Sequence record: NZ_CP079207.1 | DNA: 16,663 nucleotides | Reading direction: 5' to 3' (one strand) | Origin: a plasmid | Shown here: positions 1,144-16,115 of the stretch, piece after piece | Numbering within the stretch: the stretch's first letter is position 1 | How the letters are laid out: every line of letters starts with the position of its first letter | Notes under the pieces: model-generated | Database searches by the model: none | Seen by the model: only the letters and a program-made list of their open reading frames with translations | Told to the model about the DNA's origin: nothing | Translations under genes and position numbers: made by a program

Positions 1144-1292
1144 AACGCCATATAAGCCCATTTAAGCCACTTCAAGTGTTACGCATATATTTTACTAAAG
1201 CCACTTTAAAATCGCTTAGAAGTAAAAACAGATACCTTGAGTGGGCGAATTGGCGATAGCTAAACTAGAAAAATGGGATAGGCGCTTTTTAA

Positions 1293-1490
1293 ATGACCAA
1301 ACCAAGCAAAGAAGTTGAAAAAAATTGAGCAATTGTTGGCTGACCCATGGGCAGTCGATATTCAAGACATTTGGGAGCAAGCAGCCCAAAATCGAGATCC
1401 TGATAAATGCAAGCTGTTTGACGCGTTATACACTTACCTCTTAGATAAACGCCAAGAACAAATCATCAATGAAAAGCACTTTTTGATTTA
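1293..1490 (+). pseudogene. Small ORF interrupted at an A7 homopolymer (1318-1324). ATG 1293 gives MTKPSKEVEKN-stop. Removing one A yields a clean 65-aa ORF (MTKPSKEVEKIEQLLADPWAVDIQDIWEQAAQNRDPDKCKLFDALYTYLLDKRQEQIINEKHFLI) ending at 1490.
   Basis: Manual translation. The downstream frame stays open for 55 codons but has no start codon of its own. A homopolymer is the only lesion. Confidence 0.4.
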
Positions 1491-2333: not shown

Positions 2334-2999
2334 ATGTCAAGAATTTATAAAGTTGGCGAAGCTGCTAAGCTTCTCGGTGTATCTCGCTCTACCATGCAAA
2401 GATGGGATCGAGAAAAAAGACTAGTTGCTCAGCGCAATGTTGCCAATCGCAGATACTATACGCAAGAGCGGCTGGATGCTTTTAGGGGCATTAAGCCTCA
2501 CCGCAAGACAGTTGCTTATGCCCGTGTTTCTTCTGTAGGTCAGAAAGAAAATCTTAGGCATCAGATGGCTTTCATCATTGAATATGCCAATGCTAGAGGC
2601 ATCATTATTGATGAACATGTAGAAGATATTGGATCAGGGCTTAATTATAACCGCAAAAAATGGAATAAATTATTGGATGAAGTAGAAGCAGGAAAAATAG
2701 AACGAATCTTTGTTACCTATAAAGATCGTTTTGCCCGCTTTGGCTTTGATTGGTTTGAACATTTTTGTGCTAAGCACGATACTAAAATTATTGTTTTAAA
2801 CAACCCTGAAACCTCTCCAGATGAGGAAATGGTTGAAGACTTAATTTCAGTAATTCATGTGTTTTCATGTCGGCTTTATGGGTTGAGACGGTACGGCAGG
2901 AAGATTAGGCGGGATTTAAAGAAGGAAGGTGAAAAGAGTGATCATCAAAACCAGAACATATCGATTAAAACCCAATCAAAGGATGAAGAAGGTTCTTGA
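2334..2999 (+). CDS. tnpA: IS607-family TnpA: a serine recombinase with an N-terminal MerR-like HTH.
   Basis: HTH YKVGEAAKLLGVSRSTMQRWDREKRL. Catalytic-Ser motif AYARVSSVGQ. About 220 aa from ATG 2334. Overlaps the start of tnpB. Confidence 0.8.
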   Translation: MSRIYKVGEAAKLLGVSRSTMQRWDREKRLVAQRNVANRRYYTQERLDAFRGIKPHRKTVAYARVSSVGQKENLRHQMAFIIEYANARGIIIDEHVEDIGSGLNYNRKKWNKLLDEVEAGKIERIFVTYKDRFARFGFDWFEHFCAKHDTKIIVLNNPETSPDEEMVEDLISVIHVFSCRLYGLRRYGRKIRRDLKKEGEKSDHQNQNISIKTQSKDEEGS

Positions 3000-4215
3000 T
3001 TCGCTTTGTGATTACAGACGCTTCAGCTGGAATCTCGGTTTAGAAACCTGGCAAAATATGCATGAAGCCAGACAATTGGCTTTAACCCAGCATCTTAAAG
3101 CAGAACTTAAAAAGCCTAGAAAAAAACAAAAGCTTACAAACGCTGAAAGAGAAATTCTCGCAAACAATCCTGTCCCTTCCTGGCGCAGAATTCGTGATGA
3201 GCTGACTGAAAACAAGCAATACTGGCAGACAAAGCTTCCAGCTCATGTCTTTAATTTGGCGATCCAAGACTTAGGCAATGCTTGGCAGAATTTTTTTGAT
3301 AAAGCGCAGCCAGGCTGGGGAAAGCCAAAATTCAAGTCTAAAAAAGCACCTAGGCAGGGATTTAAAATGGATCAGGCCAAAATTAAGGATGGCTGCTTAT
3401 TTTTAGAAAAGCCTAGGGCTGTCAAAGAAACATGGAACGGCTTTAAATTAAGCTCTGCTCCATTGTCGGATGATTTCGGAACAATCAGCTTTTACAAAGA
3501 AAAAAACAGATACTATGCATCCATTCCTTTTAAAATATCTGATCCAGAAGACAAGCCTAAGACAGGCAGATATACAGGCGTGGATATCAATGTTGGACAT
3601 TTCAATTACAGAGACGGTCAATGCATAGTAATGCCCAAATCGTTAGCAGCAGTCTATTGCAAAATCAAGCATTATCAAAGACAGCTGTCTAAAAAGCGTG
3701 TCGTCAATGGTAAAATCAAAGGAATGCAAAGCAAGCGCTACATGAAAGCGAGAAACAAGCTTCAAGCAGCTTACGCTCGTGCTAAAAATATTCAAAATGA
3801 TTTGATGCAGAAATTTACCACAAAGCTGGTTAGCGAATATGATTCTATTGTGATTGAAGACCTAAGCGTTAAAGGAATGCTTATGAGTCATGTTGCCTCC
3901 AAAGGAATGCACAGGTCAATGTTTGGCAGATTTAGACAGATATTGACTTATAAATGCGAATGGTATGGCAAGAAATTGATCGTAGCCAATAAACTGTACC
4001 CTTCAACTCAAAGGTGCGCAGCCTGCGGATTAGTGAAAAAAGGCGATGAAAAAATCACTTTAAGAGGCAATAAGAAGCATGGCACCAAGCATAATGAATT
4101 TGTTTGTTATAATCCGAACTGCCGTAACTATAATAAAAAAGTTGACCGTGACGAAAACGCCATGCTCAACTTAATAATTCTGGTAAAACATCCAGAATTA
4201 AATAAAGCCTTATAA
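2929..4215 (+). CDS. tnpB: TnpB (OrfB, IS605/IS607 accessory protein; RuvC-like RNA-guided nuclease family).
   Basis: N-terminal IKTRTYRLKPNQ. RuvC-I GVDINVGHFN, RuvC-II IVIEDLSVKGM, and RuvC-III DRDENAMLN. Zn finger CAACG...CYNPNC. The start is GTG 2929 or 2938, with GGAAGGTG as RBS. Confidence 0.85.
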   Translation: MKRVIIKTRTYRLKPNQRMKKVLDSLCDYRRFSWNLGLETWQNMHEARQLALTQHLKAELKKPRKKQKLTNAEREILANNPVPSWRRIRDELTENKQYWQTKLPAHVFNLAIQDLGNAWQNFFDKAQPGWGKPKFKSKKAPRQGFKMDQAKIKDGCLFLEKPRAVKETWNGFKLSSAPLSDDFGTISFYKEKNRYYASIPFKISDPEDKPKTGRYTGVDINVGHFNYRDGQCIVMPKSLAAVYCKIKHYQRQLSKKRVVNGKIKGMQSKRYMKARNKLQAAYARAKNIQNDLMQKFTTKLVSEYDSIVIEDLSVKGMLMSHVASKGMHRSMFGRFRQILTYKCEWYGKKLIVANKLYPSTQRCAACGLVKKGDEKITLRGNKKHGTKHNEFVCYNPNCRNYNKKVDRDENAMLNLIILVKHPELNKAL

Positions 4216-4459
4216 AAAGAATGCGGGCGAAGCTACGTCCGAAAAAGAAGTCAAAAGAGTCGGTCAATGCGATTACTCCCAAGTTGGAATATCGGAAAAC
4301 TGATGAAGACGTTGATAAGAAAAGCATAGGCATGTTAAGCCATAATGACTACAAATAAATACAATGTAGTTGTTTGCATATGTTTTTCATAGCTGCTAAT
4401 GAATTGAACCAGATGTACAAGCAACTAAAAAAACGGATAAATTAGAACTTAAATTAGTT

Positions 4460-5622
4460 CCTGAATTGTCAATTTAAGTGCAACAGTTAGGTTATGAAGA
4501 GATATATTGCTTGAAGAGTTCTTCTGCTGTGTGATATTGGAGGATTCGGCGATGTTTGTGGTTAATGGCATTAGTTGCCTGTTGAACATATGCAGCTGTC
4601 TTATCGTTCATGCTTTTGCCTTTAGGGAAGAATTGACGCAGAAGACCGTTGCAGTTTTCATTTGTGCCTCTTTCCCAAGGTGAATATGGATGAGCGAAGT
4701 AGATCTGACAGTTTTTAATTTTAGTCATATCTGCAAACTCAGAACCATTATCAAAAGTAATAGTCTTGAACCAATCTGGATGCTGGTCTATTTCTTTTTG
4801 AAGCAGTCTTTGACAAGTACTTGCTCGATAATCTGGTATTTTGATGACAATTTCAAAACGAGTAGTTCTTTCTGTCAGAGTCATCAAAGCAGGCTGATTT
4901 TTACGTCTAACGCCTTTAACCCAATCTCCTTCCCAGTGAAGAGGAGTTGCTCTGTCTTCAACTTCTTTAGGACGCTGCTCAATTGAATTGCCAAGATTCT
5001 TTTTATGCAAAGCATGCCCACCATGACTATGATGCCGTTTGTTTCTGCGTCTTTTAAGCTTCATTGGCAGATCAATATTGCTTATATCTAGCAAACCGCG
5101 ATCAATATAGCGATAAACGGTAGGCGTGCTGGGGCAAGGATAGCCTGGCATCGTCTGCTTGAACTCACCCACAAACTCATCAATGCTGGTAGCATCAAAT
5201 TTAGTTTTAAACCGCTTAGACAGCATTTTCAGAAAAACAGCATAATGCTTTAACTGATCACGCTTATAGCAGTTCTTGCGTCGCTTATCATGATAGATCT
5301 GCGCAGTATCGGCATAGTAATGCTCATAGAGCAGATAGTTATGATCTCTTTGCAGGACGCTGCCACGTCTGATTTCACGGCTAATTGTCGATTTGTGACA
5401 GCCAACTTCTCGAGCAATAGCGGAACAGGAGGTTATGCCTAAATCAAGCAGAGCTTGTATTTGTCCTCGTTGTACACTATTTAATTGATGATAATGTCTA
5501 GAGATGCTAGAATTTGAATTGGTCATGAAGATTCACCTTCCTTGATTTTTCGTCACTTCAAGTTTAGGTCTTCATGGCCTTTTTGTTTAACACTTAGCGT
5601 TGCACTTCAATTTTAAATCCGG
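4460..5622 (-). mobile_element. IS30-family insertion sequence, about 1.16 kb, with imperfect 26-bp terminal IRs.
   Basis: The left end ATTGTCAATTTAAGTGCAACAGTTAG aligns with the reverse complement of the right end ATTTAAAATTGAAGTGCAACGCTAAG. A 1035-bp transposase gene lies between them. The left boundary is confirmed by the independent copy at 11683. Confidence 0.75.
4492..5526 (-). CDS. IS30-family DDE transposase.
   Basis: 344 aa with an N-terminal HTH (VQRGQIQALLDLGITSCSAIAREVGCHKSTISREIRRG). DDE region with HWEGDWV, FDNGSEF and ERGTNEN motifs typical of IS30. Confidence 0.9.
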   Translation of the reverse strand: MTNSNSSISRHYHQLNSVQRGQIQALLDLGITSCSAIAREVGCHKSTISREIRRGSVLQRDHNYLLYEHYYADTAQIYHDKRRKNCYKRDQLKHYAVFLKMLSKRFKTKFDATSIDEFVGEFKQTMPGYPCPSTPTVYRYIDRGLLDISNIDLPMKLKRRRNKRHHSHGGHALHKKNLGNSIEQRPKEVEDRATPLHWEGDWVKGVRRKNQPALMTLTERTTRFEIVIKIPDYRASTCQRLLQKEIDQHPDWFKTITFDNGSEFADMTKIKNCQIYFAHPYSPWERGTNENCNGLLRQFFPKGKSMNDKTAAYVQQATNAINHKHRRILQYHTAEELFKQYISS

Positions 5623-5851
5623 GACTTACCATTTCTGTTAGAATTGCAACTTGTTCTTTGGTAAATCGCTGTTGTTTTCTAATATCACTTAAATCTTTTG
5701 TCCACTTAGAATTTTTTTCATTTTCTTCTGCTAACTTCATAAGATGATGAATTACTTCAGCATTATTTTTTAAATCGTGTTCCTCTTTATAATCTTGAAT
5801 CCAATCTAAATCTGTATCAGAAATTGTCGCTCTAAAAGTTGTCTTAATCAT
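5594..5851 (-). CDS. Small RHH-like protein (paralog C). Its last 11 codons are encoded by the IS30 right end, so the native C-terminus is lost.
   Basis: RBS AAGAGGA. Beta-strand/helix pattern TTFRATISDTDLDWIQDYKEEHDLKNNAEVIHHL, paralogous to 5866-6093. The tail VSPGFKIEVQR-stop derives from the IS30 IR. Confidence 0.5.
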   Translation of the reverse strand: MIKTTFRATISDTDLDWIQDYKEEHDLKNNAEVIHHLMKLAEENEKNSKWTKDLSDIRKQQRFTKEQVAILTEMVSPGFKIEVQR

Positions 5852-7887: not shown

Positions 7888-10056
7888 CTAAATCATACAT
7901 TTCTGGCATTCTGCACCATTTTGAATTAAACATTCGTCTGCAGTCAAGTTCTCACTACCAGCTAAAACTTTTTCTCTTATTCTAACATAATAAATTGAGT
8001 TGCAGCGCTTTTTAAAGGCATAAATATAAGCCTTATTTAAATCTCTTGTTGTTGCATTATCTTCAACAAATAAAGTTAACGAAATTGATTGATCAACATA
8101 CTTTTGTGCAGCAGCTGTAATATCAATAATAGCATTAGGTCCTACTTCATATGCACCCTTTTCGTAATACTCATAATTGTCTTTATTAATCTTATAAGCT
8201 GGTACATAAATTCGACCCAAATCAGCCTCTTTGCGTGTTTCAACAGGAGCTACTACTGGCTGCAAACTTGGTGTACATGAAGATAAATAACTAATTGATC
8301 CAGTAGGTGCAACTGCTAACAAGTTAGCATTAGCTATACCTGTCTTTTTAATTTTAGTAATCAATTCTTCCCAATCTTCTTTAGTTGGAATAACTAATTT
8401 ATATTTAGCTACAATTTCTTTAATCTTGTCTGTTTTCGGTGAGACTTCCTCATCAATAAATTTTTTGAAATAATCACCACTAGCATATGATGAATCTTTG
8501 AATCCTTTAAAAGCACCATACTTTTCAGCTAATTTATTTGATTCTTTAAATGCATGGTATGCAATTGTATAAAAGAAAATTCCTGTAAATTCAACTGCTT
8601 CTGGTGAATCATAATAAATATGATTAGTTGCTAAAAAGCCATGTAAATTCATTGCTCCTAGACCGATTGCTCGATTAGCTTTATTTCCCTTTTCAATTGA
8701 AGGAGCACAATCTAAATCTGAAGACCTGGCAACACGATTAAGCGCTTGAACACTATCAGAAACCAAACCACCTAACTTGTCAGCGCTATTCATTGCTGCT
8801 GCAATATTAAGTGATCCTAAATTACAACAAACATCGTAGCCCGTCTTATTAAAACTTAAGTCTTCATTATAGGTACTTGGCGTATTAACCTGAGCAATTT
8901 CTGAACATAAATTAGACATCACGATCCGCCCCAATTTCTTTTGTGGGTTTCTTCGATTGACAGTATCTTCATACATAATATAGGGATACCCTGATTCAAA
9001 TTGAACTTCAGCAATAGTTTGGAAGAATTTTCTAGCACTGATAAATGTCTTTTTAATACATGGATTATTAAGGAGATTTTGGTATTCTTTAGTAATTGAA
9101 ATATCTGACATTGGTTTACCATATTCACGTTTAATATCATATGGTGAAAACAAAGCCATCTTTTTATTTTCTTTGGCTAGTTCAAAAGTAATATCTGGAA
9201 TCACTACGCCAAGTGATAAAGATTTAATTCTTACCTTTTCGTCAGCGTTTTCTCGTTTAGTATCTAAAAATTGCAGAATCTGGGGATGATGGGCACTTAA
9301 ATAAACTGCACCGGCACCTTGTCTTTGCCCTAATTGATTGGCATAAGAAAATGAATCTTCTAGTAATTTCATTACAGGAATTATCCCACTAGATAAATTC
9401 TTCATTTTTTTAATAGGTGCACCTAATTCACGCAAATTAGTTAAGCATAGAGCAACACCACCACCACGTTTAGATAATTGCAGACTTGTGCTTATTGCTC
9501 GTGAAATTGATTCCATATTGTCTTCAACTCTGAGCAAATAACATGAAACATATTCACCGCGTCTCTTTTTACCTGCATTCAAGAAAGTCGGAGTTGCTGG
9601 CTGGAAACGATTACTAATAATATCTTTAACTAAATTCAAGGCCAGTTCTTCATTGCCATCAGCTAAAAATAAAGCATTCATAACAGCCCGATCTTCAAAA
9701 CGTTCTAAAAATTGTTTATTATCGTTTGTTTTTAAGGCATATGCTTTATAGAATTTAGCTGCACCCATAAAGTTCAAAAAGCTAAAATTTTGCGCATAAG
9801 CTAATTTGAAAATTTCTTTAATAAATTTAGCTGTATATAAATCTAGAACTTTTTTATCATAGTAATTATTATCAACTAAATAAGCTAATTTTTCTTCTAA
9901 AGAAGCAAACTTTTTCATTCTTGGTTCAATATGATTTTCAAGATATTGCTTAGTAGCTTCCTTGTCAGCTTTAAAATTATAATTTCCTTTTTCATCTTTA
10001 AATTTAGCAAGTGCATTTAAAGAAATATATGAATCATTATTAAGATGATCAGTCAT
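7888..10056 (-). CDS. nrdE: Class Ib ribonucleotide reductase alpha subunit NrdE.
   Basis: About 720 aa with the catalytic NLCSEI motif. Start taken at MTDHL (ATG 10056, RBS GGTGAGGA), which overlaps the nrdI stop in ATGACTGA. Confidence 0.9.
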
Positions 10057-10474
10057 TGTCCTCACCTGCATCAGCAATTATTTTATTAACATTATTTACA
10101 TCTTCAGTTGTTCCCAGTAACTCAAATTTATATAGATAAGGAACATGTAATTTCTTAGAAATTACATCCCCTGCCAAGGCAAAAGAATTACCAAAATTGG
10201 TATTTCCACTAGCAATAACACCAATACATTTTTGCCGATTAGCCAATTTGTTCAAAAAGTGGATAACTTGCTCAGGCACAGCACCTGTAGTCCCATGGCC
10301 ACCAGAATAAGTTGGCGTAATTAAAATATATTCTTCAGAAACTGAAATTTCTTTACTGAGTTTAATAGGAATCCTAATAGAATTACAATCTAACTTTTCT
10401 ACAAAGCGTGCTGTATTATTTGAAGTGGAAGAATAATAGACAACTAATGGCTTTTTAGAAATCCCAGTCATCAT
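10049..10474 (-). CDS. nrdI: NrdI flavodoxin-like protein of class Ib RNR.
   Basis: About 140 aa. N-terminal [20 protein letters not shown] has the NrdI signature. Lies between nrdF and nrdE with overlapping stop and start codons. Confidence 0.85.
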
Positions 10475-11462
10475 CTTTAGTCTCCTCTCCTGTTCCCATT
10501 ACATATGAAGAACCATTACCAGAAAAGAAATCATGGTTTTCATCAGCTTGAGCTGATAATTGAGCGAATACTTCTGGGGAAATATAAGTTTCTTCTGCGG
10601 TAAAAGGAGTATCATAGCCTAAATTTTGTAAAAATTTACCTGCATTATACAAACTGAAATGAATTGCATCATCAACCAAATCAAAATCATCATAAAGCTC
10701 GTGCAAATATTTCTTTTCCAAATCAATTAGTTTATCTAAGAAATCAAAAACGAATTTTTTCATTTCTGCTTGTTTAGCTGGAGCTAATTTCTTTACGGCC
10801 AATTGATATTTGTAACCACTATAATAATTGTGAATAACCTTATCTCTTAAGATCAATCTAATAATATCAGCAGTATTAGGCAATTTACCTCTTGCAGCTA
10901 AATAAAATGGTAAATAAAAACCACCATAAAGCAGGAACCCTGGCATAATTGCTGCGGCAACCTTTGATTTAAGCGGATCATTGCCTGTATAATACGGAAT
11001 TACCGCTTTAGCTCTTGCTTGTAAAGCATCATTATTAACTACCCATTCATGCGCTTCTTCAATTTGTTCACTAGTACATAAAGTAGAAAAAATAGTTCCA
11101 TATGATCTTGCATGGACAGCAACCATAAAAGCAAAATTTGCATAGATAGCTTGCTCTATATCAGTTTGTGAATTTTTAATTTGGGCTACATCACCCACAC
11201 TTGATTGAGTTGTATCTAATAAAGTCAATCCAGTGAAAGTGCGAGTTATAAGCTGTTGCCAGTCATCAGATAATTGATTCCAAGAACTTATATCATTCGA
11301 AACTGGGATTTTTTCAGGTAACCAAAAGTTTTGAGTAACTCTGTTCCAAACCTCAAGATCCTTATCATCTTTAATGTCATTCCAGTTAATAGCTCGCATA
11401 TTTTTGCCGTTGTTATTGTAAGCAAATTCAACTGGTGACTGTGAATGATCATAATAACTCAT
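10455..11462 (-). CDS. nrdF: Class Ib ribonucleotide reductase beta subunit NrdF.
   Basis: [42 protein letters not shown] plus the ferritin-like diiron E/H motifs (EEAHEW). Start chosen at the second ATG (11462), preceded by AGGAG. Confidence 0.9.
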
Positions 11463-11542
11463 ATTTGTATTTGCTCCTATCATTATTTATTGTTTTATCT
11501 AATATTTGTGTGAACATAATATAGCATCTTCTGCTCAATAAT

Positions 11543-11752: not shown

Positions 11753-12129
11753 ATAGCGCTGAAATTTCAAATAGAATTAATACCGATAACGATCAGGATC
11801 AGGATCAGCAAGGTGATAATGCGGAAACAAATTTTGAATATTCCGATGATCGTGATGGAGATGACCAATAAATAATTAAAAAAAGGAGTAGACAAAATAG
11901 CATTAAGTCAGAAATTAGCTTTGAATAATGATTTTCAAAACAAAAAAGCCCTGCTATTATGCAGAGCCACCGCGCGTTCGCAAGTTATCGTCTTGCTGCG
12001 CATGCATCCATGATCATTGGACGCGACAATTTTCCTACATGTATTATAACATGCTAAAATAAAAATGCATGTCATTCATGCACATTCTAGGGTTGGCTCA
12101 ATCAACCACCCTATAGGAGGTGAGAGACG

Positions 12130-12219
12130 TTGGACGACATGACAATTTTCCTAATTTGCGTTCTGCTACATGAGCTCCATTTAGTTCTTCGGGAACTAAA
12201 TAATCTACTTGATAAGTAG
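12130..12219 (+). CDS. Short hydrophobic peptide P1, 29 aa from TTG 12130 (MDDMTIFLICVLLHELHLVLRELNNLLDK) or 26 aa from ATG 12139.
   Basis: RBS GGAGG 9 nt upstream. Paralogous at both protein and DNA level to the peptide at 12686-12778. A degenerate copy of the 5' end lies at about 12024-12056. Confidence 0.45.
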   Translation: MDDMTIFLICVLLHELHLVLRELNNLLDK

Positions 12220-12224
12220 TCATC

Positions 12225-12470
12225 ATTAGTAGACGCGACCAGAGTCATCGGCAGTTGTATAGTCGGTGACTTTTTTATTTTGCATTCTTTAATTCTCTAA
12301 AGCGTCGATAAATTGGTGTTTTGGAGATCCCTAATTTCTTGCTGATTTCAGAATAGCTCCTGTATGCAACCTCCAGGCAAAATCAATTTGTTCTGGAGTG
12401 TACTTTCGAAGCATACCATCATGGAGGTTGGTATTATTAGCTTTCGCTCATGCCTTGTTTTCCCAAGATG
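12225..12470 (-). pseudogene. Decayed 3' remnant of a serine resolvase gene, homologous to 12775-13380, with a frameshift and upstream loss.
   Basis: DNA-level homology to 12790-13010. It translates to ..NLHDGMLRKYTPEQIDFAWRLHTGAILKSARN-stop, where the intact gene reads FHDGMPRKYTSEQIDFAWKLHTQDHMSYSEISRKLG. An in-frame stop lies upstream. Confidence 0.7.
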
Positions 12471-12685
12471 AAAAAGTGCGACAGATCAACGCTTTTTTAT
12501 TTTTTTGGTCAAATTTTAGAAATATGCTAAATAAAAAAAGCGGTCAAACGACCGCCCACGTTTTGCATGCCTCGTTCATGTCGACAGCATAACACTAATC
12601 CTTTAATCATTATAACATGATAAAATAGTTATGGCATGCTTTTGTGCCCCTACACTGCTGTAAAAGGCTAGAAAGGAGCTGTATC

Positions 12686-12778
12686 ATGTCAGATGTTGTA
12701 ACACTAATCCTAACAATCGCACTTTTGAATGAATTACATTTAGTCCTTCACGAACTAAACCAGCTATTAAAGCACTAG
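12686..12778 (+). CDS. Short hydrophobic peptide P2, 30 aa (MSDVVTLILTIALLNELHLVLHELNQLLKH).
   Basis: RBS GAAAGGAG 7 nt upstream of the ATG. The stop codon TAG overlaps the convergent resolvase stop within CTAG. Paralog of P1. Confidence 0.45.
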   Translation: MSDVVTLILTIALLNELHLVLHELNQLLKH

Positions 12779-13380
12779 TGCAAAAAGTCGTCCTTCGGGG
12801 CGGCTTTTTTGTCTCTTAACTCTCTAAAACGCCGGTAGATAGTTGCTTTTGACATACCTAATTTCCGACTGATTTCAGAATAGCTCATGTGGTCTTGAGT
12901 ATGGAGCTTCCACGCAAAATCAATTTGTTCTGAGGTGTACTTTCGAGGCATACCATCATGGAAGTTAGGATTATTGGCTTTTGCCCATGCCTTGCCTTCC
13001 TGGGTTCGGTTCACGATAAGATCACGTTCAAATTCTGCAAATGCACTGAATACAGTGAAGATTAGACGGCCACTTGGTGAATTATCAATCGTACCAATAT
13101 TTAAGACGCGTAGAATGATTCCCTCAGCATTTAATTGTTTAACAATGTTCAATGCGTCCTGAGTATTACGTGCTAGTCGATCTAATTTGGTGACAATTAG
13201 GGTATCACCACTACCAATTTGAGCCATCAATTTATCGAATTCTGGTCGATTTGCTGTGGTGCCTGTGTATTTATCCTTAAAGATTTTGGTCGCTCCTGCC
13301 TGTTTTAGGTCTTCAACTTGAGTTGCATAGTCCTGCTGAGTAGTTGAAACACGAGCATAGCCATAAATGGTATTTGTCAT
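12775..13380 (-). CDS. Serine recombinase of the resolvase/invertase family.
   Basis: YGYARVSTTQQD catalytic-Ser motif. About 200 aa. C-terminal HTH (SYSEISRKLGMSKATIYRRF). Confidence 0.9.
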   Translation of the reverse strand: MTNTIYGYARVSTTQQDYATQVEDLKQAGATKIFKDKYTGTTANRPEFDKLMAQIGSGDTLIVTKLDRLARNTQDALNIVKQLNAEGIILRVLNIGTIDNSPSGRLIFTVFSAFAEFERDLIVNRTQEGKAWAKANNPNFHDGMPRKYTSEQIDFAWKLHTQDHMSYSEISRKLGMSKATIYRRFRELRDKKAAPKDDFLH

Positions 13381-13486
13381 ATATTTCCTTTCAATTATGA
13401 ATACAAGTTATGAATATGGCTTATGCCCTATCTTAGAAGATTCTACTTTTGTATTCAAGACTTTCAACTTTTGATTACAAAACAAA

Positions 13487-13527
13487 AAGCAGTTTCTAAA
13501 AAGAAACTGCTTAAGTATTATTATTTT
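13487..13527. terminator. Bidirectional rho-independent terminator. Stem AAGCAGTTTCT / AGAAACTGCTT; the T-run is stronger on the minus strand.
   Basis: Perfect 10-11-bp stem with an AAAAA loop. The minus-strand RNA is followed by UUUUUGUUUUG. Confidence 0.65.
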
Positions 13528-13729
13528 CAATAATTACCATTTAATGTTAGAAATAGAAGATCAAAAGTAGAGAATGAAAATGTAAAAGTAGGAGTAGAGA
13601 ATAAAAATGAGAAAAAAGGGCTGGCTCTTTCTAACAGCCAGTCAGAGTACTCAAATCTGAGACAAAATGTAAAAATTAGCATAGATCGATTAACAATTGT
13701 TGGAGATTTTTCGACAGAGCTTTTTAAAA

Positions 13730-14350
13730 AATTAGTTCGTAAATGGCTGACTTTTTCTTTTATTAGATCTTCGGGAGCTGGTTTTGAGGTATTAGATTAT
13801 TCAAATTGCAGGTTTGATGATTTCGGTAATCCACATGAGGAAATTCCGCCTGGGCTTTTAAAACGTGCTGTTTTTTCTTGCCGGAATAATAAGCTGCTTG
13901 TCTTTTTTTGGGCGTTGAATCTTTACTTCAGTGGCATCGATTAAGACAACATCGTCTGGCTTGATTTCTTGCTTGCCAATGTTAAAGCCATGCTTAGCCA
14001 AAGTCTCTTCGGCCCAGTGGCTTCTTCTGATCAGGTTGCTGTCATGCACACCGTAATCGGCAGCTATTTGTTCATAAGTACGGTATTCCTTGAGGTACTG
14101 CAAAGTAGCCAGAAGCAGGTCTTCAATTGCCAGCTTGAGCTTTCTGCCGCCTCGGGCATGCTTGACTTGATATTCGGCTTTTAATACTTTGACCATTTCG
14201 TCAAAGACAGGCTTGGCAACGCCGATCAGACGCTTGAATCTGGTATTGTTTAAATTTTTAGCTGTTTCGTATTTCATAATTTAAGATTATAGCAGATGTT
14301 TCGCAGTAACTCTATTAACTAAAGAAACAAATAATGAAAGGCATGGTTGG
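13730..14350 (-). mobile_element. 5' fragment of an IS5-family element (IS427-like two-ORF organisation). orfA (13858-14277) is intact. orfB begins via a -1 frame at AAAAAAC and then stops after about 30 codons, so the DDE domain is missing.
   Basis: The orfA N-terminal HTH region ends at the first DDE aspartate (LIDATE). The -1 frame continues KKKQHVLKAQ, resembling the IS5-family YSGKKKRHTLK block. No further transposase sequence follows. Confidence 0.55.
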
Positions 14351-15025: not shown

Positions 15026-15087
15026 TTACTGATTGTGTGATTTATGATAAAAGATTAATCTTTTATCATAAATCACACAATCAGTAA
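15026..15087. repeat. Perfect 62-bp palindrome immediately downstream of the small par gene. It carries the same TGATTTATGAT and GATTAATC motifs as the parA operator.
   Basis: TTACTGATTGTGTGATTTATGATAAAAGATTAATCTTTTATCATAAATCACACAATCAGTAA checked base by base. There is no T-run after it on either strand. Confidence 0.8.
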
Positions 15088-15107: not shown

Positions 15108-15323
15108 TTATTTACGTTTGGCAAGGCCTTCACGAATAATTTTTTCTAAGACATCAACAATTTTTTTGTCATTCTCAAAAGCGATGCGTTTAACTTCTTT
15201 ATATGTGCTCATGCGAAGTTGAACGGTTTTAGTTCTTTCTGTTTCGAATTGGTATGGACTTTTTAGATTTTTAAGTTGTTCAGATGCCTTTTTACTAACT
15301 TTGTTTAAAAAATCTTCTGCCAT
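15108..15323 (-). CDS. Small RHH-type partition/centromere-binding protein (ParG/ParR-like partner of ParA).
   Basis: 71 aa located directly after parA. TVQLRMSTYKEVKRIAFENDKKIVDVLEKIIREGLAK has a beta-strand plus two helices, the RHH pattern. Confidence 0.55.
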   Translation of the reverse strand: MAEDFLNKVSKKASEQLKNLKSPYQFETERTKTVQLRMSTYKEVKRIAFENDKKIVDVLEKIIREGLAKRK

Positions 15324-15329
15324 GATAAA

Positions 15330-16115
15330 TTACTCCTCTAACTGTTGAATTCTAAGTAGTTGTTCATTAAGAACCATTTGGTACATTTGGATTGCTCTTT
15401 TATCCCAATGGTCTTTATTCCGTATTCCTTCATTAGCAAACGTTTTAACCCGTTCTTGAGTTCTAATTGAGTTTGAAAAGACCCCTTCGCCAAAAAAGTC
15501 TTTTGCTTGTGCAGAAATTTCAGTATCAACTTTTGCACGTGGCTTCATTAAGTACAATATGACACCAACTAACTGAAAACTTCCATTGTATTGTTCACGT
15601 AGTTCACCTAAATGCGTAGCTGTTTTTAAAGAACTTGTATATGACTGCTTTTGAGTTTGTAAGACAATTGAGATGAAATCTGAAGCCATGATTGCGTTAT
15701 TAGTAAAGACATTTATTGTTGGTGGTACGTCAATAAAAATATAATCGTAATTTTGTTTTAATTTTGAAAGCATTTGTGGTAATAGAATATTACGTTTAAC
15801 CCGACTAACTTTTTCTACAGCACCAATCCATAAAGACAATGTCCAATCTGTAGGAATCATATCAATTTGGTTTGTAACAGACACAATAGATTTAGACAAA
15901 TTCCCTCCAAGAAGGCCCTCATATAATGAAAGTTCCGGCTTTAAATCGGCTTTATAAGTCTCCTTCATAATTTCAGTTGCATTTCCCTGGGGATCGAAAT
16001 CTATCAGTAGTACTTTTTTCCCCTCTTGACCCAATAAATAGGTTTCCATTACAGTCAAGGTGGTCTTACCAACGCCACCTTTAAAGTTGAAGTTTAATAG
16101 TGTTTTCCCATTCAT
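15330..16115 (-). CDS. parA: ParA/Soj-family partition ATPase.
   Basis: Deviant Walker A KGGVGKTT near the N-terminus. 261 aa. RBS AGGTAGGTG. Confidence 0.9.
   Translation of the reverse strand: MNGKTLLNFNFKGGVGKTTLTVMETYLLGQEGKKVLLIDFDPQGNATEIMKETYKADLKPELSLYEGLLGGNLSKSIVSVTNQIDMIPTDWTLSLWIGAVEKVSRVKRNILLPQMLSKLKQNYDYIFIDVPPTINVFTNNAIMASDFISIVLQTQKQSYTSSLKTATHLGELREQYNGSFQLVGVILYLMKPRAKVDTEISAQAKDFFGEGVFSNSIRTQERVKTFANEGIRNKDHWDKRAIQMYQMVLNEQLLRIQQLEE

Follow-up and report, generated by a model that had tools for sequence, protein, structure and literature searches.

Predicted divergent antisense RNAs at two small peptide genes of a Lactobacillus plasmid point to type I toxin-antitoxin-like cassettes

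Introduction

The plasmid sequence NZ_CP079207.1, of which we analysed a stretch of 16,663 nucleotides (nt; hereafter the window), contains two short open reading frames (ORFs), each of which converges with a serine resolvase gene or with the remains of one and is preceded by a short repeat of its own first codons. This raises the question of what, if anything, controls the two small hydrophobic peptides that these ORFs encode, and for what purpose the plasmid carries them. The initial annotation of the locus saw a tandemly duplicated module in which the transcripts of peptide gene and resolvase are mutually antisense, and it took the repeats for the remnants of a breakpoint. The comparisons described here lead us to a different reading, namely that each module is probably a self-contained type I toxin-antitoxin-like cassette of ~280-350 base pairs, the antisense RNA of which would come from the upstream DNA and not from the resolvase. 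The two foundations of this reading, the pairing of a small RNA (sRNA) with the peptide messenger RNA (mRNA) and the coding status of the peptides, appear well supported by comparative evidence, and we regard both as highly probable.

Two conserved peptide genes

Both ORFs and both Shine-Dalgarno (SD) sites are present in the window as first annotated. ORF 1 (putative toxin-1; 12130-12219, plus strand) encodes 29 amino acids (aa), MDDMTIFLICVLLHELHLVLRELNNLLDK, from a TTG start codon that lies 9 nt after the SD sequence AGGAGG at 12115 and agrees with the alignment of the homologues, and ORF 2 (putative toxin-2; 12686-12778, plus strand) encodes 30 aa, MSDVVTLILTIALLNELHLVLHELNQLLKH, from an ATG start codon 8 nt after the SD sequence GGAG at 12674-12677. 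We identified 16 distinct intact homologous modules, from Lactobacillus plasmids and from metagenome contigs of unknown host, and the ORFs of all 16 encode 28-30 aa and have an SD sequence 7-10 nt upstream.

The initial annotation had argued that the peptide is under selection, and the codon statistics bear this out. Within the peptide core LLHELHLVLHELN the variable columns at codon positions 1, 2 and 3 number 6, 3 and 13, out of 13, and the pairwise codon differences are 117 synonymous versus 30 non-synonymous; the two other frames are stop-rich. Variation at the third codon position combined with a conserved protein sequence means that hitch-hiking alone cannot explain the conservation. Ten residues are invariant across 15 distinct aligned peptides. 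The N-terminal 11 residues are strongly hydrophobic (Kyte-Doolittle mean 2.5-3.0 for the N-terminal half), and the C-terminal half is amphipathic, with a hydrophobic moment of 0.47-0.59 and a mean hydrophobicity of ~0; leucines recur at heptad-like spacing (residues 14, 17, 21, 24 and 28) and the polar face is made up of His15/18/22 and Glu16/23, these His and Glu residues being invariant or nearly so. It is conceivable, as a matter of speculation, that such a peptide acts as a pore-forming or pH-sensitive oligomer.

Neither peptide type had a match in Pfam or NCBIfam (E<=1-10), in PADLOC or in a profile search of the PDB (E<=10), and among 1.84 billion representative proteins a single relative emerged, P0001, which is 83% identical to the ORF 2 peptide. 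The peptide genes are annotated in none of the plasmid records that we inspected. Full-text literature searches on the motif of the peptide and on type I systems of these Lactobacillus species returned no description, T1TAdb and the subscription literature being outside their scope, so an earlier description is possible. The two genes are real and conserved, and they are apparently undescribed. A bacteriocin or immunity peptide was considered as well and dropped, given that there is no leader and that only one locus lies near a lactococcin-972 gene.

Back-to-back promoters and a predicted antisense RNA gene

Upstream of each ORF both modules share a motif, ATTATAACATG-N-TAAAATA. The window contains its form ATTATAACATGNTAAAATA at 12043 and 12609 and nowhere else, versus 0.01 occurrences expected. 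The minus strand of ATTATAACATG reads CATGTTATAAT, which is an extended -10 box (TGnTATAAT), and the other half of the motif gives TGnTAAAAT on the plus strand, an extended -10 box for the peptide mRNA. With extended -10 boxes on both strands, each module holds two overlapping back-to-back promoters. The promoter core of module 1 spans 12043-12060 on both strands, where the TATAAT of the minus strand, with TG, appears as ATTATA at 12043-12048 and belongs to the sRNA, and TGCTAAAAT, with its -10 box at 12055-12060, serves the peptide mRNA. The divergent, overlapping promoters of module 2 lie at 12609-12637, also on both strands; here the sRNA promoter has its -10 box at 12614-12609 and its -35 box at 12637-12632, and the peptide mRNA promoter is TGATAAAAT, with its -10 box at 12621-12626. 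A consensus promoter scan independently reports the former as ATGCCA-17-TATAAT with TG at 12637-12609 on the minus strand.

A terminator scan placed minus-strand intrinsic terminators at 12557-12538 and 11968-11947, each just downstream of one of the supposed remnants. Placing transcript starts 7 nt downstream of each -10 box, and predicting all transcript ends from sequence, we obtain a putative sRNA-1 of ~95 nt (12036->11942, minus strand), which starts 7 nt downstream of the minus-strand TGTTATAAT and would consist of a single-stranded 5' seed, AGGAAAAUUGUC, two internal hairpins and the intrinsic terminator at 11968-11947. The putative sRNA-2 (12602->12533, minus strand; ~70 nt) would similarly have a 5' seed, AGGAUUAGUGUUA, an internal hairpin and a terminator, GGGCGGUCGUUUGACCGC-U7. 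On the plus strand, the predicted toxin-1 mRNA (12067-12276) begins with GCATG, which pairs with the start-codon region, followed by the SD sequence, the ORF and a terminator hairpin at ~12241-12273; the predicted toxin-2 mRNA (12633-12810) begins with GGCATG, which pairs with CATGTC at the start codon, and likewise continues with SD sequence, ORF and terminator. The divergent starts predicted in this way, 12036(-)/12067(+) and 12602(-)/12633(+), are ~31 nt apart.

The architecture and its conservation can be read directly from the relatives. All 16 modules combine the promoter block, an SD-preceded ORF and a minus-strand sRNA gene with terminator. The ATTATA...TGnTAAAAT block was seen in 8/8 plasmid modules and in every intact module found later, and nowhere else in the fetched loci, with a distance from -10 to -10 of 12 or 18 nt. 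The 16 predicted sRNAs measure 66-95 nt; each starts with a short unpaired 5' tail, of 8-13 nt in most of them, and continues with an internal hairpin and a GC-rich terminator with its U-run. RNAalifold recovered the terminator hairpin only, the variable internal hairpin having been misaligned by MAFFT. A permissive Rfam scan (E<=10) of 11880-12860 found no family at its gathering score, the sub-threshold chance matches being RNAI (25 bits versus 47) and Phe_leader. A countertranscript for replication control was rejected as an identity for the sRNA, since its position relative to the rep genes is not conserved.

Seed and target covary at a fixed register

The direct repeats are identical at 13/13 positions in module 2 (12590-12602 and 12699-12711) and 89% identical in module 1 (12020-12037 and 12136-12153). 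What had been described as a remnant of peptide codons is the extreme 5' end of the minus-strand sRNA, and is therefore antisense to the peptide mRNA. The predicted target of sRNA-1 lies at 12126-12153 on the plus strand (mRNA -4 to +24) and includes a 12-nt perfect match, GACAATTTTCCT, at 12141-12152, with a duplex of -31.4 kcal/mol; that of sRNA-2 lies at 12680-12712 on the plus strand (mRNA -6 to +27) and includes a 13-nt perfect match, TAACACTAATCCT, at 12699-12711, with a duplex of -32.8 kcal/mol. The extended duplexes, which have a few mismatches or bulges, take in the start codon, and the predicted 5' end of the sRNA is thereby complementary to the peptide mRNA from the start codon through codon 9. 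In every module, sRNA nt 1 to 9-13 are perfectly complementary to mRNA +12/14 to +23/26.

Seeds and targets differ among modules and match within them, as in the pairs AGGAUUAGUGUUA with UAACACUAAUCCU, AGGGUUAAUGUUA with UAACAUUAACCCU, AGAACUAAUAUUA with UAAUAUUAGUUCU and AGAGUUAGAGUAA with UUACUCUAACUCU, and with respect to the promoter and the conserved peptide core the register is the same in all of them. Over the 11 distinct seed/target pairs 87.5% of the cells pair, a share that falls to 40-51% when the partner is shifted by 1-3 columns; compensatory changes, on both sides, are seen in 13/16 pairs, and the observed covariation score was reached by 0/500 shuffles. At the fixed register, Watson-Crick matches average 12.0 of 13 for cognate and 7.3 for non-cognate combinations, and the seed-region duplexes range from -25 to -34 kcal/mol for cognate partners versus -8 to -21 kcal/mol for non-cognate ones, the exception being L. 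crispatus L005 and L. amylovorus L007, whose near-identical sRNAs pair crosswise as strongly as cognate partners do. Taken crosswise, the two window modules give -13.9 and -18.8 kcal/mol, energies weak enough that they should not cross-react. These figures come from seed-restricted and fixed-register analyses, which replaced whole-transcript energies: the whole-transcript RNAduplex measure failed to discriminate at window copy 1 and at the alternative-toxin module of L. amylovorus plasmid p2 (z = -1.4), and is uninformative because long interior loops inflate the background.

The predicted folds leave both partners accessible in the region concerned. The target site is mostly unpaired (P 0.60-0.97), and nearly all of the 16 predicted sRNAs leave their 5' 8-13 nt single-stranded. 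In minimum free energy folds of the seven HELH-family plasmid modules, drawn with inferred 5' ends, the 5' end of the mRNA (GCATG...) pairs with the start-codon region, and in these seven the predicted probability of being unpaired is 0.15-0.53 for the SD sequence and 0.01-0.36 for the start codon; in the L. amylovorus alternative-toxin module the start codon is mostly unpaired (0.68).

Alternatively, the repeats and the motif might be inert scars of duplication or recombination, the ORFs being conserved as part of mobile DNA with no RNA-RNA regulation involved. Recombination through the repeats does occur, as collapsed copies in three lineages attest, and the region is a mosaic in which copies 1 and 2 are related to different plasmids. 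We nevertheless consider this explanation extremely unlikely, given repeats that match within modules and differ between them, a fixed register and a fixed distance from the minus-strand TATAAT and terminator, a motif found twice where next to none is expected, and a pattern of codon variation that goes beyond hitch-hiking alone. The direct repeats and the shared motif of the initial annotation are real, while the breakpoint that they were thought to mark appears to be a functional unit of promoters and a minus-strand sRNA gene. Where short direct repeats lie beside small ORFs, both strands should be examined before the repeats are put down to recombination scars.

A second direct repeat, 12009-12027 versus 12221-12239 (79%, with the exact GACGCGAC within), links the sRNA-1 gene to the DNA just after the ORF 1 stop codon. 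It may be that sRNA-1 also pairs with the 3' untranslated region (UTR) of its mRNA, or the match may be due to chance.

The two modules are not a recent duplication

Similarity between modules 1 and 2 at the DNA level is confined to a 31-nt ORF core (81%), a 19-nt promoter core (95%) and a resolvase fragment (78%). Copies 1 and 2 are ~80% identical over longer stretches to the modules of L005 and L027, respectively, and hence closer to these than to each other. With each copy nearer to modules on other contigs, there was no recent tandem duplication, and the tandemly duplicated module of the initial annotation gives way to diverged paralogs. On these similarities the two modules are old paralogs brought together by recombination, with seeds that are predicted not to cross-react. 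Lactobacillus ultunensis DSM 16047 also has both modules as a pair.

The convergent resolvase

The resolvase genes are arranged as the initial annotation described them, one intact, one frameshifted and truncated, with overlapping stop codons at the former. The intact serine resolvase gene (12775-13380, minus strand) encodes 201 aa with matches to Pfam PF00239 (6.3e-42, residues 5-137) and PF02796 HTH_7 (residues 145-186), and CTAG at 12775-12778 contains the stop codons of both ORF 2 and the resolvase gene. The pseudogene (~12223-12470, minus strand) retains the C-terminal third, in at least two frames, and lacks ~105-130 N-terminal residues; it is of the L. crispatus DC21.1 (L005) type, with the tail QNKK.TD.TTADDSGRVY.

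It is on this arrangement that the antisense relationship was first founded, the peptide and resolvase mRNAs being supposed to overlap at their 3' ends in a cis-acting control, of the resolvase by the peptide gene or the reverse, that forms a unit for plasmid multimer resolution. The shared CTAG would fit this idea, as would a resolvase ORF that passes through the peptide terminator, and convergent resolvases are likewise found after the L005-type module and after the L009 alternative-toxin module. Moreover, the terminator of L005 and window copy 1 is without an upstream A-run, so that resolvase transcription could read antisense through the peptide gene. A wider comparison tells against it, however. 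A resolvase lies within 1 kb in only 2/16 peptide-module types (that of window copy 2 and that of L. crispatus DC21.1, of which window copy 1 is a decayed relative), in addition to the alternative-toxin module, and none adjoins the L. johnsonii type (8 contigs), the gasseri, helveticus and amylovorus types or most metagenomic types. Four aligned resolvases are conserved up to ...IYRRFRELR/K and then end in unrelated tails of 8-22 residues that vary with the neighbouring DNA; that of the window resolvase, the 12 residues DKKAAPKDDFLH after ...RRFRELR, is read from the terminator of the peptide module.

This terminator hairpin, at 12782-12809, has A-run and T-run flanks, belongs to the peptide module and encodes the last resolvase residues; it is homologous to the L. 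johnsonii terminator, where no resolvase follows. Owing to its A- and T-runs it should terminate both transcripts, and the overlap in the window is confined to it. We explain the CTAG by a resolvase frame that reads through into the module terminator and meets its first in-frame stop there, and the rarity of the resolvase beside the modules, together with its context-dependent tails, makes the overlap of stop codons incidental. A regulatory partnership with the resolvase strikes us as very improbable; on the comparative evidence the resolvase is a neighbour of the putative cassette, not its partner, and the antisense RNA is predicted to be the divergent one from upstream. Synteny with a resolvase does not characterise the family, and of the suggestion of an undescribed small-protein family linked to plasmid resolution, the family, missing as it is from the databases, holds, and the link does not.

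We note that, on the minus strand, the U-run of the hairpin is followed after a few nt by the stop codon of the resolvase gene (12777-12775; window 12775-12812). If the hairpin terminates resolvase transcription efficiently, the mRNA could extend no further than its own stop codon.

Relatives, inactive copies and a second peptide

DNA searches of PLSDB found relatives in plasmids of L. johnsonii, L. gasseri, L. crispatus, L. helveticus (pLH1), L. amylovorus, L. kefiranofaciens and L. gallinarum, all matches in the plasmid database being on Lactobacillus plasmids. A tblastn search of plasmids with the 30-aa peptide gave no match, probably because of the low-complexity filter, whereas the DNA searches did find relatives. 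A search with a degenerate pattern of the peptide core brought up 31 metagenome contigs, 31/31 of which are true members, and a scan of viral contigs gave 0 matches. In a scan of genome contigs 48 stretches matched, of which one was confirmed (L. ultunensis); a filtering artefact is suspected and the species range is under-counted there.

Inactive copies of at least five separate kinds were found, and every one of them is without toxin expression signals. In three lineages independently, L. kefiranofaciens/gallinarum (L010-L013, ~1950-2080) and the metagenome contigs L029 (~400-560) and L039 (~1220-1420, minus strand), the module has collapsed, the repeat in the sRNA gene being fused into the body of the ORF, with both promoters, the 5' UTR, the SD sequence and the start codon gone. 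The L013 relic also has an in-frame TAG. In L043 the SD sequence, start codon and N-terminal codons are deleted, and L041 has lost both promoter and sRNA gene. Among the modules examined, every peptide gene that has a promoter is accompanied by a cognate sRNA gene. Inactive copies that always lose peptide expression, with none that keeps the promoter and lacks the sRNA, are the asymmetry expected of a toxin.

Plasmid p2 of L. amylovorus GRL1118 (L009, 2120-2490) has the same chassis with an unrelated peptide of 41 aa, MKWYLLLVLVFMPVDRRSKFFKRFKKALKKALKVLLDSLLR, which begins MKWYLLLVLVFMPVDRRSKFFKRFKK and is recorded as the hypothetical protein WP_014566316.1. It has a hydrophobic head and a basic tail, which is the usual shape of a type I toxin. 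Codons 3-9 of its gene are mirrored at the sRNA 5' end, and the module is convergent with a resolvase gene. A 95%-identical copy is found in L. kefiranofaciens NZ_CP140263.1, and there are partial copies in four other kefiranofaciens plasmids. This suggests that the chassis is modular and its putative toxins swappable. Directly upstream of the alternative-toxin module, at L009 1990-2110, lies an orphan sRNA-1-type gene that is 85-87% identical to window 11930-12076 and has neither promoter block nor peptide gene.

Proposed mechanism and the question of toxicity

How would such a cassette work? We propose that the promoter block fires both ways, rightward to yield an mRNA of 180-210 nt for a 29-30 aa peptide and leftward to yield an sRNA of 70-95 nt that ends at its own intrinsic terminator. 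As the sRNA gene contains a direct repeat of the translation-initiation region of the peptide gene and is transcribed in the opposite direction, the sRNA would have a complementary, single-stranded 5' end. Its seed would bind an unstructured stretch of the mRNA and the duplex would spread over the start codon, block binding of the 30S subunit and probably expose the RNA to RNase III, and the helix between mRNA 5' end and start codon would add intrinsic translational repression. Upon loss of the plasmid, and provided that the sRNA decays faster than the mRNA, a membrane-active peptide would be made and the cell harmed. The two window modules, with different seeds, would act independently. In this scheme we infer the transcript ends, the RNA half-lives, translation and toxicity. 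Each peptide is most likely a plasmid "addiction" toxin, and toxicity and post-segregational killing as such we consider rather more probable than otherwise.

A number of points weigh against this reading. The control statistics for the pairing are inflated by kinship among the sequences, and covariation of two direct DNA repeats could arise by homogenisation rather than by selection for RNA pairing. The predicted transcription starts on both strands follow from the positions of the -10 boxes, the peptide promoter is without an obvious -35 box, and the fold that sequesters the SD sequence is a prediction. As regards the peptide, the fully hydrophobic stretch is only ~11 residues long and the helix has two invariant Glu residues. 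In the Lacticaseibacillus toxin Lpt, a Glu introduced at Pro11 abolished toxicity (PMC6811638). Given the invariant Glu residues here, the peptide may not act as a classical membrane toxin.

Alternatively, therefore, the sRNA-regulated peptide might be real and yet non-toxic, a small membrane or oligomerising protein with some other plasmid role (for instance in the response to stress or pH, or in the modulation of membrane proteins) that the antisense RNA keeps low. The short hydrophobic segment would suit such a role, as would the C-terminal amphipathic Leu-heptad helix with its (nearly) invariant His and Glu residues, and database and profile searches found no similarity to any known toxin family. 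We hold this alternative to be unlikely, given a plasmid-borne cassette that often occurs two or more times and shows the complete type I regulatory layout, inactive copies that have all lost peptide expression with no expressed-looking gene left without an sRNA, and a second peptide of typical type I toxin shape on the same chassis.

Relation to known type I systems

The resemblance to a type I toxin/antisense system that was noted initially extends to the layout, the pairing and the small hydrophobic peptide. On the peptide side of the type I definition, which asks for 20-60 aa, there is a short SD-preceded ORF with a hydrophobic N-terminal half and a coding signature; on the side of the antisense RNA there are, at the level of sequence, its own promoter, its own terminator and a covarying complementarity. 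The closest parallel in principle comes from par (pAD1, Enterococcus faecalis), which encodes Fst, and from Lacticaseibacillus Lpt, in which direct repeats over the toxin translation-initiation region are transcribed in opposite directions (PMC7472228, PMC5608710). As in the window, a plasmid-borne cassette encodes a ~30-aa peptide, antitoxin complementarity derives from direct repeats, and the 5' region of the toxin mRNA is predicted to fold back on the SD sequence or start codon (PMC7472228, PMC5608710). However, the par and Lpt RNAs converge on a shared bidirectional terminator, whereas the predicted window RNAs diverge from a shared promoter block, do not overlap and have separate terminators.

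The peptides differ as well. Members of the Fst/Ldr superfamily are marked by P/D/S/T-XXX-G within the transmembrane helix and by a conserved Trp that precedes a charged C-terminal tail (PMC7472228). None of the peptides in our alignment of 15 has this motif, PXXXG included, or the positioned Trp, and the charged, disordered tail of Fst and Lpt is also missing; the sole Pro (residue 2) and the sole Trp (residue 12) both occur in the gasseri-type peptide. An hhalign comparison with Fst (PDB 2KV5, sequence verified) gave a probability of 4.7% over 10 columns. With no motif, no profile match and this hhalign result, the impression that the peptide is neither Fst nor Ldr is upheld.

As for the position of the antisense RNA, the T1TAdb paper lists a 5', non-overlapping antisense RNA for Zor/Orz, ShoB/OhsC, TisB/IstR-1 and DinQ/AgrB, all of them Gram-negative, and describes every Gram-positive family as 3'-overlapping (PMC8594479). 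The window modules are like the former four in their predicted 5', non-overlapping antisense RNA with short complementarity (~13-30 nt), but those systems are Gram-negative and chromosomal, the window cassettes being on a Lactobacillus plasmid, and the peptides are unrelated, with no Rfam, Pfam or NCBIfam match. The sRNAs of these enterobacterial families pair in the 5' UTR or at the standby site. By contrast, the pairing predicted in the window covers the start codon and codons 1-9. TxpA/RatA, BsrG/SR4, SprG/SprF and SprA1/SprA1AS, on the other hand, are alike as Firmicutes small hydrophobic toxins with a dedicated antisense RNA, but there it is 3' and overlapping (PMC8594479), whereas here it would be 5' without overlap, and there is no sequence similarity.

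This leads us to a broader proposal, for and against which we see the case as evenly poised, that the cassettes form an unrecognised type I family restricted to plasmids of Lactobacillus sensu stricto (crispatus, ultunensis, johnsonii, gasseri, helveticus, amylovorus, kefiranofaciens and gallinarum). Among Gram-positive families it would be the first whose antitoxin RNA is divergent, non-overlapping and encoded on the 5' side, and it would have many orthogonal seed/target specificities that let two cassettes share a plasmid, a toxin that is a His/Glu leucine-heptad helix rather than an Fst-like transmembrane one, and a modular chassis carrying unrelated toxins. If confirmed, it would represent both a new toxin family and a new gene layout among the type I systems of Firmicutes, and it would help to explain how lactobacilli of the vagina, the gut and dairy products keep their small cryptic and metabolic plasmids. 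Current annotation pipelines do not see the cassettes. Their covarying seed/target pairs amount to a natural collection of presumably orthogonal sRNA-mRNA regulators, and the cassettes could serve as compact stabilisation elements for probiotic Lactobacillus vectors.

Plasmid context and other features

The region of the two modules is 100% identical to plasmid NZ_CP046312.1 of Lactobacillus crispatus FDAARGOS_743, and the window as a whole equals this plasmid except for two extra segments, 3350-5685 and 13470-14316. The gene content of the plasmid comprises nrdEFI, parA, repA and an insertion sequence element. On the annotation of the identical region of NZ_CP046312.1, there is a complete class Ib ribonucleotide reductase operon (nrdE, nrdI, nrdF) at 7888-11483.

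A tandem repeat of 87.5% (454-545 versus 508-611, offset at least 54 nt) lies within the ORF of the RepA replication initiator (1-1143). At 15026-15087, just right of a 71-aa ORF (15108-15323, minus strand) and the ParA gene (15330-16115, minus strand), there is a 62-nt perfect palindrome, which may be a partition site or an operator. Finally, an Rfam match to RF03014 (Transposase-1 RNA) at 4251-4309, with 61 bits versus a gathering score of 42.8, directly follows a 428-aa ORF (2929-4215, plus strand), inside a segment absent from NZ_CP046312.1.

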